Source: an uncultured bacterium | GTDB taxonomy: Bacteria; Edwardsbacteria; AC1; EtOH8 | Assembly: GCA_964588285.1 (NCBI GenBank) | Contig: CAZPNX010000001.1 | Location: 143 to 64,142, forward strand | Length of the DNA: 64,000 nt | Direction: 5' to 3' | Part shown: in pieces, positions 45,905-60,766 of the stretch | Position numbering within the stretch: the stretch's first letter is position 1 | How the letters are laid out: each line of letters begins with the position of its first letter | Program-made: the position numbers and the translations under genes | Notes under the pieces: model-generated | Seen by the model: only the letters and a program-made list of their open reading frames with translations | Told to the model about the DNA's origin: nothing | Database searches by the model: none

Positions 45905-45993
45905 CATACCCACCTCGAACATGCCCTTCGGCTATGCTCAGGGCAGCGCTCGGTATATGCCACGTTCCCATCGATTCTAAGTGAACAAGGCAT

Positions 45994-46025
45994 ATTGCAA
46001 AATGCGAAAAGTTGCATTTTGCAAT
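45994..46025. promoter_or_regulatory. perfect 12-bp inverted repeat (candidate enhancer/UAS) upstream of the pilin sigma-54 promoter
   Basis: ATTGCAAAATGC-gaaaagtt-GCATTTTGCAAT, ~115 bp upstream of the -24 element. Confidence 0.45.
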
Positions 46026-46138
46026 ATAAAAGAACAGTAAGAAAATTAAGAAAACATTGCTGGAAATATCTGTGATTTATAAACTCTTTATATTCAAAGA
46101 CTAACAAAATCATAAAAATTATAAAAAACTGTTGACTT

Positions 46139-46763: not shown

Positions 46764-46780
46764 TAATCAGCTCGATGGAA

Positions 46781-46815
46781 GATGGGCCGTATTGTAAAAT
46801 ACGGCCCATCTTTTT
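46781..46815 (+). terminator. rho-independent terminator after the pilin gene
   Basis: GATGGGCCGTAT-tgtaaa-ATACGGCCCATC followed by TTTTT. Confidence 0.75.
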
Positions 46816-47360: not shown

Positions 47361-48359
47361 ATGAAGCACGGGAACAGAAGAAAAAGCATTCTGCTCAATA
47401 AGCGGATGCAGCTTAGCCTGGTATTCAGGATACTTGGAATTTCTTTGATCAGCATCCTGCTGATTGGCGGTTGCATATATCTGACCATCTGGATCCACGT
47501 AACATCTTCGGCCTTTGCTTCCGGAAAGATGTCGATGATCCAGATTTTCGACCGAGTCCATATGTTGCTGGCAGCGGTCCTTCCGGCGGCAGTCCTCTTA
47601 GTATTGTGGATGGGATTGCACATTTCCCATTCGATACTGGGGCCGCTGGTGAGGCTGGAAAACGAGTTCAAATCCATCAGACAGAATGGCTGGCATGGCC
47701 AGCCATTGAAGTTCAGGAAAAACGACGGCTTCGCCGAGCTAGCGATGGAGTTCAACGCCATGATGGATAGTCTGCAGCCTCAGGGAAAACCCTCCATTGG
47801 CCCTACAACTCCTGCTACTGAGCCTGGGAAAGAAAAATTCAAGTACGCCGGAGGCTTCACCCTCATCGAGTTGATGATCGTAGTCGTCATTATCGGCATA
47901 TTAGCGGCTATCGCGGTCCCCAACTACATCTCTATGCGTTTGCGGGCGCTTGAGGCCTCCTTAAAAGCGAATATGCATACCCTACAATGCGTTGTCGAGG
48001 AGTTCAACACCATGGCCGACGGCACATACCCGGGCGGTCTTGATGTCAGAGTGTCTGCCGTCATTCCAGCAGGGATAAATTCGTCCATTGCCGAAGGCGT
48101 CAGGATACCACCATTCCCCGCCAATGCGCTTATAAGCCCCCATGCAGGATATGCTAACCCGTTCAACCGCGCGTCAAATGCACTAGATGACTTAGCGGCT
48201 GGACCACCAGCGGTTGCACCCAGCGGTAACGTTTATTATACAGCCTATAATCAATTAGGTAATGTGACAAACGGCGTAGAAAACGCCGCATCAAGATATG
48301 TAATAACAGCTTATGGCAATAATGCACCGCTAAGCTTAGTGTTGAGATCCGGGCAATAG
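47361..48359 (+). CDS. 2TM-HAMP module fused in frame to a type IV pilin domain (or pilin with an extraordinarily long leader)
   Basis: Residues 1-135: two TM helices plus HAMP-like 'ILGPLVRLENEFKSIRQNG...NDGFAELAMEFNAMMDSL'. Then a Pro/Thr-rich linker, then 'KFKYAGG|FTLIELMIVVVIIGILAAIAVPNY' at residue 166 (F codon at 47856). No stop codon between the two parts. Confidence 0.7.
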   Translation: MKHGNRRKSILLNKRMQLSLVFRILGISLISILLIGGCIYLTIWIHVTSSAFASGKMSMIQIFDRVHMLLAAVLPAAVLLVLWMGLHISHSILGPLVRLENEFKSIRQNGWHGQPLKFRKNDGFAELAMEFNAMMDSLQPQGKPSIGPTTPATEPGKEKFKYAGGFTLIELMIVVVIIGILAAIAVPNYISMRLRALEASLKANMHTLQCVVEEFNTMADGTYPGGLDVRVSAVIPAGINSSIAEGVRIPPFPANALISPHAGYANPFNRASNALDDLAAGPPAVAPSGNVYYTAYNQLGNVTNGVENAASRYVITAYGNNAPLSLVLRSGQ

Positions 48360-48412: not shown

Positions 48413-49357
48413 ATGCACCTACCCATCCTCCAGATCGTAAACCTCTCCAAGACCTTCCACGACTGGGAGCACCTCAGATTCCGCCCCATCCCTGTGCTCA
48501 AGAGTATCTCGTTGGAGGTGCAAAAAGGGGAGATCTTTGGCTTTTTGGGCCCCAACGGGGCCGGCAAGACCACTACCATCAAGACCCTGATGGGCATCAT
48601 CCGGCCAACCTCGGGCACGGCCCGCATCCTGGGCCATGACCTGGTGGAGCATTCCCAGGAGGTGAAAAAACGCACCGGATTCCTGCCGGAGAACCCATAT
48701 TTTTACGATTACCTGAAGGTGGGCGAGTTCGTGGAATTCTGCGGGTCGCTGTTCGGCCAGGACCGGGCTTTCCGCCGTCGACGAGCGGCCGAGCTTTTGG
48801 AGATGGTGGGCATGTCTCATGCCGCCAACCTGCCCTTGAGAAAATGCTCCAAAGGGATGCTGCAGAGGACCGGCATCGCACAGTCCCTGGTCAACGACCC
48901 CGACTTCCTGGTGTGGGACGAGCCGGTCTCGGGCCTGGACCCGATAGGGAGGAAGGAGATCAAGGACCTGATGCTGGACTTGAGAAGGCGGGGCAAGACC
49001 ATCTTCTTCAGTTCCCACATCCTGCCCGATGCCGAGGCCCTGTGCGACAGGGTGGCCATTATTATCAATGGAGAAGTGAATACCATCGGAACCCTTCCCG
49101 AACTGATGAAAGACGCGGTTTCGTGGGTTGAAATCGTGGCCGAGGACCTCAAGCAAGGCTTTAAGTACCGGGAGGCGACGGTGGAGAACGTGGCCAATCA
49201 GACAATCTTTAAGATAAAAGATATCAAGCATTTAGATAATATTCTTAAAGCGATTATTGAGAAAAAAGGCAGAGTAATCTCCGTGACCCCACAAAGGGAG
49301 AACCTGGAAACCTACTTTGCCAGGCAGGTTAAGGCCCGGGGCCGGAAGCCGGGTTGA
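48413..49357 (+). CDS. ABC transporter ATP-binding protein (ABC-2 type exporter)
   Basis: Walker A 'GPNGAGKTTT', signature-like 'CSKGMLQRTGIAQSL', Walker B 'FLVWDEP'. Confidence 0.85.
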   Translation: MHLPILQIVNLSKTFHDWEHLRFRPIPVLKSISLEVQKGEIFGFLGPNGAGKTTTIKTLMGIIRPTSGTARILGHDLVEHSQEVKKRTGFLPENPYFYDYLKVGEFVEFCGSLFGQDRAFRRRRAAELLEMVGMSHAANLPLRKCSKGMLQRTGIAQSLVNDPDFLVWDEPVSGLDPIGRKEIKDLMLDLRRRGKTIFFSSHILPDAEALCDRVAIIINGEVNTIGTLPELMKDAVSWVEIVAEDLKQGFKYREATVENVANQTIFKIKDIKHLDNILKAIIEKKGRVISVTPQRENLETYFARQVKARGRKPG

Positions 49358-49359
49358 GG

Positions 49360-49965
49360 ACCTTACCCTCTGTTCCCTCCCCCGCAGGGAGAGGGACGGC
49401 CCCTTCCCCTGCGGGGAAGGGGCCGGGGTTAGGTCAAAGGGCTGGCTGGTCGTTGAGTGCCGCCTTGTCCCGATAAAACCTACGGCCACTTGACATGCGG
49501 CGGGTGTACTTGTGCCGAGCCGGGTCGAGGCTTCGAGACGGCCGGCGGCCCCCTCTCCGGGATCGGAGAGGGCAGGGTGAGGGCATGTCCCGCTTGGTGC
49601 GCCATGCCCGAAGCTTGAGACAGGGTTCCACTGATGCCGAAAGGTTATTGTGGAGGCATTTAAGGGATAGAAGACTGGCGGGTTTCAAATTCAGAAGGCA
49701 GTCCCCTATAGGTAGATATATAGTAGATTTCGTCTGCTTCGAAGCCAAGGTGATATTGGAATTGGATGGAAGCCAGCATGCCGAGGAAGCTCAGGCCGAG
49801 AGGGATTGTGTCAGGGACGAGTGGCTGGGAAGCCAGGGGTTCGAGGTGCTTAGGTTTTGGAACACGGAAGTGATAAAGAACGTAAGTGGTGTGCTGATGA
49901 AGATAAGGGAGGCGTGCCAGCGCACCCTCACCTAAGTCCTCTCCCATCAAGGGAGAGGTGTCGAG
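49360..49965. mobile_element. DUF559 (Vsr-like endonuclease) mini-element with flanking CCCTCTCC/GGAGAGGG hairpins, inserted between the ABC ATPase and permease genes
   Basis: Hairpins at 49398-49424 (GGCCCCTTCCCC-tgc-GGGGAAGGGGCC), 49551-49572 (CCCTCTCCG-ggat-CGGAGAGGG) and 49938-49958 (CCTCTCCC-atcaa-GGGAGAGG). Inverted GGGTGAGGG (49575-49583) / CCCTCACC (49924-49931) bracket the ORF. Confidence 0.65.
49585..49935 (+). CDS. DUF559 domain protein (very-short-patch-repair endonuclease-like fold)
   Basis: 'ERLLWRHLRDRRLAGFKFRRQSPIGRYIVDFVCFEAKVILELDGSQH...DEWLGSQGFEVLRFWNTEV' is the characteristic DUF559 sequence. Start chosen at internal Met 'MSRLV'. Confidence 0.75.
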   Translation: MSRLVRHARSLRQGSTDAERLLWRHLRDRRLAGFKFRRQSPIGRYIVDFVCFEAKVILELDGSQHAEEAQAERDCVRDEWLGSQGFEVLRFWNTEVIKNVSGVLMKIREACQRTLT

Positions 49966-49992
49966 CGGAGTAAGTAGAATCGGGTACAAGCC

Positions 49993-50760
49993 ATGAAACG
50001 CATACTTGCCATCGCCCAAAACACCTTCAAGGAGACGGTGCGGGACCGGATCCTCTACGGACTGGTGGTCTTCGTCCTGTTGCTGCTGCCGGGCTCCCGC
50101 CTGGTGATACCCCTGGCCATCGGCCAGGAGCTGAAAATCATGAAGGACTTCGGCTTTGCCGCCATCGCCCTGTTCGGGCTGATGATCGCAGTGGTGGTGG
50201 GCACCGCCTTGGTGCACAAGGAACTGGACAAACGGACCATCTACGTGCTGGTGGCCAAACCGGTGCGGCGCTGGGAGCTTTTGGTGGGCAAGTATTTCGG
50301 CCTGATGGCCACCATTCTGCTGGCCTTTCTGGTGATGTTCGCAGTTTTGGCGGCCACGGTGCTGTCGCTGGGAGGCAGGCTGGACTGGCTGCTGGTCCTG
50401 ACCGTGGCCGGTCTTTTCCTGCAACTGGCGGCGGTGACCGGCCTGGCCATTTTCTTTTCCACCTTGGCCTCCCCGGCCCTATCGGCCGTTTTCACCATCT
50501 GCCTTTATATCGCAGGCACGGCCGCCGATCAGCTGCGACTGTTCGCCGAGCGCATGCCGGGGACCTTCGTCAAGCTGGCGGTCAAGGGTGCCTCATATCT
50601 GGTACCCAACCTCCACCTGTGCAGCTTCCGCAACGAGGCCGTCTACGGACTGCCGGTGTCTGGGGGCAAGGTGCTGATCATGCTGGCATATATACTGATC
50701 TACACCTCCCTGGTCCTGCTGATATCCTCGGCCATCCTGGAGAGGAAGGACCTTAAGTGA
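49993..50760 (+). CDS. ABC-2 family transporter permease
   Basis: Six TM helices; 'MKRILAIAQNTFKETVRDRILYGLVVFVLLLL' is the typical ABC-2 permease N-terminus. Confidence 0.8.
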   Translation: MKRILAIAQNTFKETVRDRILYGLVVFVLLLLPGSRLVIPLAIGQELKIMKDFGFAAIALFGLMIAVVVGTALVHKELDKRTIYVLVAKPVRRWELLVGKYFGLMATILLAFLVMFAVLAATVLSLGGRLDWLLVLTVAGLFLQLAAVTGLAIFFSTLASPALSAVFTICLYIAGTAADQLRLFAERMPGTFVKLAVKGASYLVPNLHLCSFRNEAVYGLPVSGGKVLIMLAYILIYTSLVLLISSAILERKDLK

Positions 50761-60686: not shown

Positions 60687-60766
60687 GCTTGGATGATTTT
60701 CGGATTGATAGTCAAGAGGGTGGGGCCGCGGTCCCACCCTCTTGACTATGGGATGCCTAAAGAAGG

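Follow-up and report, generated by a model that had tools for sequence, protein, structure and literature searches.

Why does a small gene for a predicted nuclease lie between the two genes of a transporter, with hairpin-forming repeats set closely against both of its ends? We address this question for a 64,000-nt stretch of DNA from an uncultured Edwardsbacteria bacterium (contig CAZPNX010000001.1; hereafter the window), the numbering of which is used throughout, and L-numbers denote homologous loci that were retrieved for comparison. An open reading frame (ORF) of 116 aa, encoding a predicted Vsr-like PD-(D/E)xK nuclease of the DUF559 family (49585–49935, + strand), is found here between the ATPase gene (48413–49357, + strand) and the permease gene (49993–50760, + strand) of an ATP-binding cassette (ABC) transporter. 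Our analysis points to a compact cassette with inverted repeats of the BoxC/PIT/TM type at its ends, and suggests that such repeats and DUF559 genes belong together in many bacteria.

Insertion of a DUF559 cassette between two transporter genes

The upstream and downstream operon partners were recognised by their Pfam matches (ABC_tran, 3e-28, and ABC2_membrane_2, 5e-16, respectively), and orthologues of the permease served as bait for empty and filled sites. A permease scan of species genomes gave 38 loci, the closest of which come from metagenome-assembled genomes labelled 'bacterium UBP2_UBA4780' or 'uncultured bacterium'. No DUF559 match was found in any of 36 related ABC loci (L008–L043, including loci from Acidobacteriota, Fibrobacter, WOR-3 and Nitrospiraceae), and in all 33 of these with a detectable ATPase match the ATPase gene lies directly 5′ of the permease gene. 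In the DUF559-free locus L008, where the permease is 72% and the ATPase 68% identical to those of the window, the TGA of the ATPase gene overlaps the ATG of the permease gene (ATGA). The cassette is also carried by L001 and L002, two metagenomic contigs that do not differ from the window, and by L003 and L007, whose DUF559 protein has 81% amino acid identity; in L003, with an ATPase of 91% identity, it lies at the same place and the repeats are conserved as well. Because L008 is empty with its ATGA overlap, and because the gene is absent from the 36 related loci, the alignments show the cassette as an insertion into a junction that was ancestrally coupled in translation. The comparison further shows that it was then inherited vertically in the lineage of the window and L003 as a working gene. 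The initial annotation had proposed such an insertion between co-translated partners, and had suggested looking for an empty site in related genomes; L008 and the DUF559-free loci bear this out. The counter-case that it named, the same gene at the same position with no repeats, is not what we see, as the L003 orthologue keeps them.

We use TM for a motif of the BoxC/PIT/TM type, which consists of a C-arm, a loop, a G-arm, a spacer and a third, G-rich strand that mirrors the G-arm. The left cassette end, TM-L (49551–49583, + strand), is a sense motif of the form CCCTCTCCG-GGAT-CGGAGAGGG-CA-GGGTGAGGG with a 9-bp hairpin at 49551–49572 around the loop GGAT, and it ends 1 nt 5′ of the DUF559 ATG. 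The right end, TM-R (49925–49958, − strand), is an inverted motif, CCCTCACC-TAAGT-CCTCTCCC-ATCAA-GGGAGAGG, with an 8-bp hairpin at 49938–49958 around the loop ATCAA, and the last three codons of the ORF and its TAA stop sit in the third strand and spacer of this motif. In both hairpins the pyrimidine (C) arm comes first, and the mirror match of third strand to G-arm is 8/9 in TM-L (GGGTGAGGG to CGGAGAGGG) and 8/8 in TM-R; the hairpin part of the motif has a DNA fold of −9 to −12 kcal/mol. The third strands include the inverted bracket GGTGAGGG (49576–49583) and CCCTCACC (49925–49932). The 9-mer GGGWGAGGG is by itself common enough in the 64 kb (2 found vs 2.9 expected); the hairpin pattern CCCTCTCC-N3-8-GGAGAGGG is rare there (1 found vs 0.00 expected). 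The 236-nt spacer folds at −131.9 kcal/mol, as compared with −111.9 ± 4.5 kcal/mol for shuffled sequence (z = −4.4), and Rfam gave only sub-threshold, microRNA-like chance matches to the hairpins.

Between the window and L003, TM-L is conserved at 92% and TM-R at 94%, despite a synonymous divergence (dS) of about 0.95 and an adjacent spacer, from TM-R to the permease start (49959–49992, + strand), that is not conserved (about 40% identity, alignment A1). Because the gene and its proximal repeats are conserved in L003 and the DNA upstream is missing there, the DUF559 unit is, by this comparison, best delimited as 49551–49958 (408 bp), with the two proximal hairpins and the GGGTGAGGG/CCCTCACC strands as its ends; the remaining DNA between the ATPase stop and 49551 consists of secondary arrivals. 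Thus a DUF559 ORF with hairpins does lie between the ATPase and the permease where the initial annotation had placed it. The unit had been drawn as 49360–49965 with three hairpins at its termini, one of them a perfect 12-bp stem. The cassette falls inside that interval and the hairpins are present, but we found four, the perfect stem is 13 bp, and the distal hairpins are not termini of the unit.

The protein matches PF04480 at 5.8e-44 (148.9 bits, cut-off 20.6) over positions 3–108 of the 109 in the profile, keeps all 15 invariant family positions (44-sequence alignment A2) and has the conserved acidic/His core (D48, E59, D61, Q64, H65, R77, R90 and W92 in window numbering). Over its full length it aligns with NGO0050 of N. 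gonorrhoeae, an uncharacterised protein (PDB 3HRL, E = 5e-28), and its identity to E. coli YcjD is 48%; with the NCBIfam YcjD equivalog model it scores 110 bits, under the cut-off of 218 bits. An exact-sequence look-up of the 116-aa protein gave no match, because the gene call begins at an internal start and gives a product of 95 aa. DUF559 is the sole domain found by Pfam, where the other entries are MTES_1575 (under its cut-off) and DUF2726; neither the Vsr model PF03852 nor Y1_Tnp matched, and the cassette holds no recognised transposase. Libraries of defence and phage models gave only weak sub-threshold matches of nuclease domains (DpdF, 4e-5; ProA, 4e-4; far under cut-offs). A scan of the + strand for promoters and terminators gave nothing, and the hairpins have no T-tracts. 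Among the 11–12 genes called within ±6 kb (L001, L003) there is no methyltransferase, of the C5-cytosine type or other, the neighbours of the cassette being housekeeping genes.

The ratio of non-synonymous to synonymous substitution rates (dN/dS) between the window and L003 is 0.11 for DUF559; the permease has 0.12 and the ATPase 0.07. This indicates that the DUF559 protein is selected for a function, its nuclease activity itself being a prediction. The initial annotation had called the insertion selfish; the insertion stands, and its selfish nature would be an inference. Purifying selection on the ORF is as strong as that on the permease. It had also described DUF559 genes as often multi-copy, which we did not see here. 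We found no second DUF559 copy in the 64-kb window, E. coli genomes have a single copy each, and proteins of identical sequence are always found at a single locus (P0074 in 24 contigs, P0071 in 12 contigs).

Coupling of DUF559 genes to BoxC-type repeats

Is the association of this gene with these repeats peculiar to the window? We picked 80 unrelated metagenomic DUF559 loci by protein motifs only and scanned their flanks, within 150 nt of the ORF, for hairpins that have the C-arm first and a perfect stem of 7 bp or more. Such hairpins were present upstream in 60/77 and downstream in 56/78 of the loci. Their density near DUF559 is 5.6–6.4 per kb and falls with distance, as compared with 0.037 per kb in a control of 294 kb of unrelated ABC loci, which amounts to an enrichment of about 150-fold specifically beside DUF559. 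The C-arm comes first in 140 of the 141 proximal hairpins. A second G-rich strand follows the G-arm after a spacer of 1–6 nt in 42/62 upstream and 49/58 downstream TMs, and the third strands face the ORF from both sides. The third strand repeats the G-arm in mirror image, often with T in place of A, and the two covary, as in the pairs GGGGGAGG with GGTGGGGG, GGGGGAAGG with GGATGGGGG, and GGGAGGGG with GGGGAGGG; this mirror rule holds for 84 of 119 TMs, vs 51.6 ± 3.6 (at most 61) in 500 random re-pairings. The loops of the upstream and downstream motifs are often reverse complements (CTTGT/ACAAG, TTGAT/ATCAA), and the two ends are therefore inverted copies.

The gene is also fitted to the repeats. 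The ORF starts 0–25 nt after TM-L in most loci, and it stops in or just past the right TM in 49/57, often at the TAA of the spacer. Odd N- or C-terminal tails of distant DUF559 homologues, such as PSPQPSPTRGEG and HPPLNPLPSREG, are translated CCCTCTCC...GGGAGAGGG. The sequence types of the TMs differ (e.g., GGGAGAGGG, GGGGGAGGG, GGGGGAAGG and TGGGGGG), and TM-flanked DUF559 genes are found in Deinococcus aetherius, Azospirillum, N. gonorrhoeae, Synechocystis, S. meliloti and Pseudanabaena, hosts that span the Deinococcota, the Alpha-, Beta- and Gammaproteobacteria and the Cyanobacteriota. The survey thus shows, at the level of sequence association, a coupling of gene and motif that is family-wide and crosses phyla, and strongly supports the link between DUF559 and such repeats that the initial annotation had named.

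Several arrangements depart from the single cassette. Double cassettes occur in tandem in L075 (320–1190), each patterned TM(−)...TM(+)-ORF-TM(−), and inverted in L113 (1659–2492). On a Pseudanabaena plasmid (L165, 205–902) the variant CCCCCCA-GAAT-TGGGGGG-CTA-GGGGGG, with the same tripartite layout, occurs six times around DUF559. Dispersed solo TMs are found in E. coli, in rhizobia and near L050 and L065; the latter two loci have arrays of solo C-arm/G-arm hairpins within 2 kb of DUF559, up to 15 in L050, which suggests a local proliferation of ORF-less repeats. In rhizobia, 158 plasmid records contain matches to TM units of 45–48 nt, each record at several places, and the ORF matches its own record only; when S. 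meliloti was searched for an allele pair with and without the cassette, no junction was obtained, the ORF again matching only its own record. Many DUF559 genes lie on ENA contigs of 0.5–1 kb (L139, L144 and others), some with very high coverage (cov 317, cov 147), as one would predict for assemblies that are interrupted at repeated TMs.

BoxC/PIT/TM repeats have been known since 1992, and to our knowledge no function, origin, spreading mechanism or protein partner has been established for them. The E. coli motif TMECO, CCCTCTCCC-TGT-GGGAGAGGG-CCG/TTA-GGGTGAGGG, is the same as BoxC and the PIT elements and is present in 23 copies in E. coli K-12, five as inverted pairs, and the TM motif is known from more than 260 genomes (Holder et al. 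2015, PMC4666352). The E. coli TM sequence forms a triplex in vitro by circular dichroism and nuclear magnetic resonance, and TM loci are unstable and more rearranged among E. coli strains (PMC4666352). Holder et al. found no mobility functions near TMs, and the words 'endonuclease' and 'DUF' are absent from their text (PMC4666352). The repeats of the window are, by their sequence and layout, motifs of this BoxC type. They share with BoxC/PIT/TMECO (Bergler 1992; Hoyne and Maher 2000; PMC4666352) the tripartite order CCCTCTCCC-loop-GGGAGAGGG-spacer-GGGTGAGGG in nearly the same sequence, the intergenic position, the TTA/TAA spacer and the arrangement in inverted pairs with third strands inward. 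We inspected four K-12 pairs (hrpB-mrcB, near fepB, ygfF-gcvP and near alx), each of which reads TM(+), 16–29 nt, TM(−) with third strands inward, that is, the layout of the window minus the ORF. The E. coli pairs thus differ in enclosing only 16–29 nt, whereas the pair in the window encloses a predicted nuclease ORF, the start and stop of which are built into the repeats; no dispersed copies were seen in the 64 kb.

E. coli also has a gene of the family, and like NGO0050 (3HRL) its product YcjD shares with the window protein both the family and TM-like repeats at the flanks of the gene. The C-terminus of ycjD (b1289), ...SPSP*, is encoded by CCCTCTCCC TGA, and 3′ of the gene lie a degenerate hairpin, a duplicated ycjD 3′ fragment and a full TM (TMECO no. 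9). In K-12 (L124, 2700–2940) the fragment (GGAGACGGTGCTGGAGAATATTC...) is placed between the gene and TMECO no. 9, and it looks like a relic of a second cassette. The flanks of ycjD are thus degenerate and rearranged, whereas the cassette in the window is intact and symmetric. ycjD is present in 3378 of 5426 E. coli genomes, once per genome, and absent from 38%; at the same locus it alternates with the eefRABCD operon (PMC12817139).

Turnover at the site and neighboring DNA

Close relatives of the permease show the junction in five states. It is empty in L008. In L159, where the permease is 80% identical, an AT-rich spacer of 177 nt (229–404) holds no ORF and a doubtful TM remnant; this spacer contains CCCTCTT...AAGAGGG-ATATC-GGAGAGATGG, which may be what a lost cassette left behind. 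The window and L003 have the window-type cassette, and a second type, which we call S-type, is found in L006 (1–432) and L150–155 (L150, 1633–2034). The S-type ORF (133 aa) runs through the right TM, and its TGA overlaps the permease ATG, by which the ATGA coupling is restored. In L006 'nn' at 241–242 shifts the ORF out of frame, maybe as an assembly artefact. In the fifth state, in L156–158, a truncated S-type cassette is interrupted by a segment that is also present in the window (segment X, see below).

The S-type and window-type ORFs are 47–50% identical in amino acids and 54% in nucleotides, and no closer to each other than either is to unrelated DUF559 genes. Because the permeases of their hosts are 83–88% identical in nucleotides, these levels argue that the site has been hit at least twice, or that a resident cassette was swapped. 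A neighbor-joining tree of the permease genes, built to see whether cassette types interleave, is star-like and unresolved and gives no order of events; the argument for replacement is therefore one from identity levels only.

The DNA from 49358 to about 49545 is missing from L003, the closest cassette-bearing relative, and holds a distal pair of hairpins and segment X. Hairpin A (49374–49396; TCCCTCCCCC/GGGAGAGGGA, imperfect at 9/10) has a weak C-rich strand 5′ of it at about 49365–49372, so that it resembles an antisense TM. Hairpin B (49397–49434) reads CGGCCCCTTCCCC-TGC-GGGGAAGGGGCCG followed by GGGGTTAGG, with a perfect 13-bp stem at 49397–49425 and a 3-nt loop, and is a sense TM-like unit placed tail to tail with hairpin A (pair 49374–49434). 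The DNA fold of 49362–49438 is −27.5 kcal/mol (z = −4.5). Both hairpins are absent from L003, and they are a separate repeat pair.

Segment X (49439–49548, about 110 nt, ends CTGGCTGGTCGTTGAGTGCC ... CTTCGAGACGGCCGGC), likewise absent from L003 and present once in the 64-kb window, shares its ends CTGGCYGGTCGTYGAGTGCC ... TCGAGACGRCCGGC with the insert in L156 (196–334) and L157, where X is a clear palindromic insert (perfect arms of 13 bp and 12 bp) within the truncated DUF559 ORF. We tentatively regard it as probably a separate small element resembling a miniature inverted-repeat transposable element (MITE). The X copy in the window is not itself a strong palindrome, its DNA fold being unexceptional (z = −0.5). 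A 13-nt direct repeat, AGCCGGGTTGAGG/AGCCGGGTCGAGG at 49347–49359 and 49518–49530 (171 nt apart), flanks the extra DNA that is absent from L003 and not the cassette, its first copy supplying the stop codon of the ATPase gene; AAACCTAC likewise occurs at 49308 and 49476. For the 13-nt repeat we see three possible origins: duplication of a target, duplication of part of the ATPase 3′-end, or coincidence. A blastx search of the 227-nt spacer found no DUF559 coding remnants, only repeat-encoded peptides being matched.

Farther out, the gene just 5′ of the ATPase gene (47361–48359, 332 aa) encodes a HAMP-like region and a type IV pilin N-methylation motif, and L003 has a protein of 174 aa resembling a pilin in its place, so this flank is variable too. 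Long perfect hairpins at 45992–46027, 46779–46812 and 60708–60749 (stems of 14, 15 and 17 bp) are unrelated in sequence to TMs and may be terminators or other repeats.

Possible explanations and comparison with known systems

How could such a cassette have arisen and spread? We favor, as a fairly probable reading, a compact cassette that moves horizontally, in which the inverted BoxC-type TMs are the cis-acting ends of a Vsr-like DUF559 nuclease gene. The nuclease would recognise and nick the TM, whether in its duplex form or once single-stranded or supercoiled DNA has extruded it as a hairpin or triplex. The TMs of about 35 bp would then serve both as cis-acting ends and as homology handles, and break-induced copying or gene conversion could move or replace cassettes between TM-bearing sites. 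Such copying might leave TM pairs without an ORF, as the BoxC pairs of E. coli look, or such pairs could be landing pads; a first entry into a TM-free site, as here, would call for an additional step. More tentatively, and with more doubt than confidence, we suggest that the protein partner so far missing for the BoxC/PIT/TM repeats is the DUF559 nuclease, the two forming a cross-phylum repeat-nuclease system. In it, the cassette of about 410 bp would be the autonomous form, and BoxC pairs and solo TMs would be derivatives of it that have no ORF, or landing pads for it.

Several observations weigh against the mobile cassette. The mechanism is inferred, and the link between nuclease and TM is an association of sequences. 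About a quarter of the surveyed loci have no detectable TM on one side, and the TMs of Deinococcus and Synechocystis are in the opposite orientation. Outside TM-L and TM-R no direct repeat was seen in the window or in L003, and neither a target-site duplication, which the initial annotation's proposed check of the target site at both ends would address, nor a nucleotide-precise junction could be defined, the closest empty site being about 30% diverged. No other TM-type hairpin is present in the 64-kb window, where the density in E. coli (23 per 4.6 Mb) leads one to expect less than one further TM. With a single copy in the window and in E. coli genomes, recent transposition at high frequency is not evident, and purifying selection of the strength seen on host genes is as compatible with a domesticated gene as with a selfish one.

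This last point leads to the main rival, which we consider unlikely but worth serious attention, namely that DUF559 encodes a domesticated helper, a Vsr-like nuclease of benefit to the host that travels with or beside the repeats that it services, its position being a neutral accident. Its task might be to resolve or repair the hairpins and triplexes of the TMs, or to carry out very-short-patch repair for a solitary cytosine methyltransferase, which is what has been proposed for VsrA of Caulobacter. The dN/dS of 0.11, equal to that of the permease, would be expected of such a gene, as would its single copy and stable position within species. RAYTs, which offer the closest analogy, are likewise single-copy and vertically inherited. 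In Caulobacter, the DUF559 protein VsrA has a cellular phenotype that is tied to the methyltransferase ScmA (PMC12907096). A role in methylation-linked repair is however difficult to reconcile with the lack of a methyltransferase within ±6 kb of the cassette, and a beneficial helper with a distribution so patchy that the gene is absent from L008, L159 and more than a third of E. coli genomes. Two unrelated cassettes furthermore occupy one intergenic site in sibling genomes, and start and stop codons built into inverted repeats are the anatomy of a mobile unit rather than of a gene that by chance adjoins repeats.

If TMs were instead hotspots of recombination or instability, a role that Holder et al. 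propose for them (PMC4666352), and captured assorted DNA, DUF559 could be no more than a frequent passenger at a fragile site. The rearrangement of TM loci among E. coli strains (PMC4666352) and the alternation of ycjD with eefRABCD (PMC12817139) agree with this, and the site studied here has also gathered an extra TM pair and segment X. We nevertheless find it improbable, as the geometry is too regular for assorted cargo: the same gene family recurs, with third strands toward the ORF, a start 0–25 nt after TM-L and a stop in TM-R, and the enrichment of hairpins is specific to the DUF559 neighborhood. Even less credit can be given to a defence or addiction module, in which the repeats would regulate a stand-alone restriction-like or toxin nuclease; the weak matches to DpdF and ProA and a Synechocystis DUF559 copy that adjoins a BREX methyltransferase point that way, but the cassette has no antitoxin or methylase partner gene, no defence-system model is significant and the neighbors are housekeeping genes. 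Least likely of all is that DUF559 was an ancestral resident of the operon, lost in other lineages, with ordinary terminators or attenuators as its hairpins, for although L003 carries the gene at the same position and the ORF is co-oriented with the operon and has no promoter of its own, the gene is missing from all 36 related loci, which come from many phyla, the 4-nt ATGA overlap of L008 is an unlikely product of a deletion of about 640 nt, the hairpins lack T-tracts and have a sequence common to repeats from E. coli to Deinococcus, and two cassette lineages share the one site.

DUF559 is among the commonest uncharacterised nuclease domains in bacteria. The regular coupling of DUF559 and TM gives each of these two orphans a candidate partner, and makes experimentally approachable the questions of what spreads BoxC and what DUF559 cuts. 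If the mobile cassette is real, this would be the first structure-forming triplex motif that serves as the end of a mobile cassette. Locally, an element of 0.4 kb can uncouple the translation of an ABC transporter pair, and in the S-type re-couple it through an ATGA overlap of its own. DUF559 and BoxC/TM are each known, and their coupling appears to be new: in the searchable literature, with subscription-only papers outside its scope, we found no paper that links the two. We see a substantial chance that they form a distinct and undescribed repeat-nuclease system.

How does the cassette compare with systems that are known? Vsr and the VsrA of Caulobacter, which carries a DUF559 domain (PMC12907096), resemble the window protein in fold and size. 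The latter, however, does not match PF03852 and has no methyltransferase neighbor, and vsr genes do not have the anatomy of a cassette bounded by repeats. Like insertion sequences (IS) and MITEs, the cassette has terminal inverted repeats of about 35 bp, an ORF that runs into the right repeat and ORF-less pairs elsewhere; unlike IS, it has no transposase of the DDE, HUH, serine or tyrosine type, and no autonomous IS is nearly as short as its 408 bp. No target-site duplication was found for it.

Free-standing homing endonuclease genes are small selfish ORFs that are present or absent at a fixed site, and the site here is polymorphic in this sense (filled in the window, L003, L006 and L150–155; empty in L008; no ORF in L159). 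The nuclease of a homing gene would cleave the empty allele at or close to the point of insertion; no recognisable target across the empty site could be defined here, the empty allele being too diverged. The EDxHD homing endonuclease I-Bth0305I has a related Vsr-like catalytic fold and is classified together with this family (PMC3424549), but unlike the DUF559 protein it is encoded in a phage intron, has an added DNA-binding region and lacks flanking repeats. With the repetitive extragenic palindromic (REP) sequences and their RAYT transposases (REPtrons/REPINs), the cassette shares a single-copy nuclease gene, short inverted palindromic repeats that are also dispersed gene-free, vertical stability and selection. 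RAYTs are HUH/Y1 (IS200/IS605-like) enzymes that act on simple hairpins, whereas the predicted protein of the window has a PD-(D/E)xK Vsr-like fold and no HUH motif, and its repeat, unlike REP, has an extra mirror strand with triplex potential. By analogy, then, the logic of the proposed cassette resembles that of a free-standing homing endonuclease gene or of the REP-RAYT partnership, with a triplex-type repeat and a Vsr-like nuclease as the putative partners.

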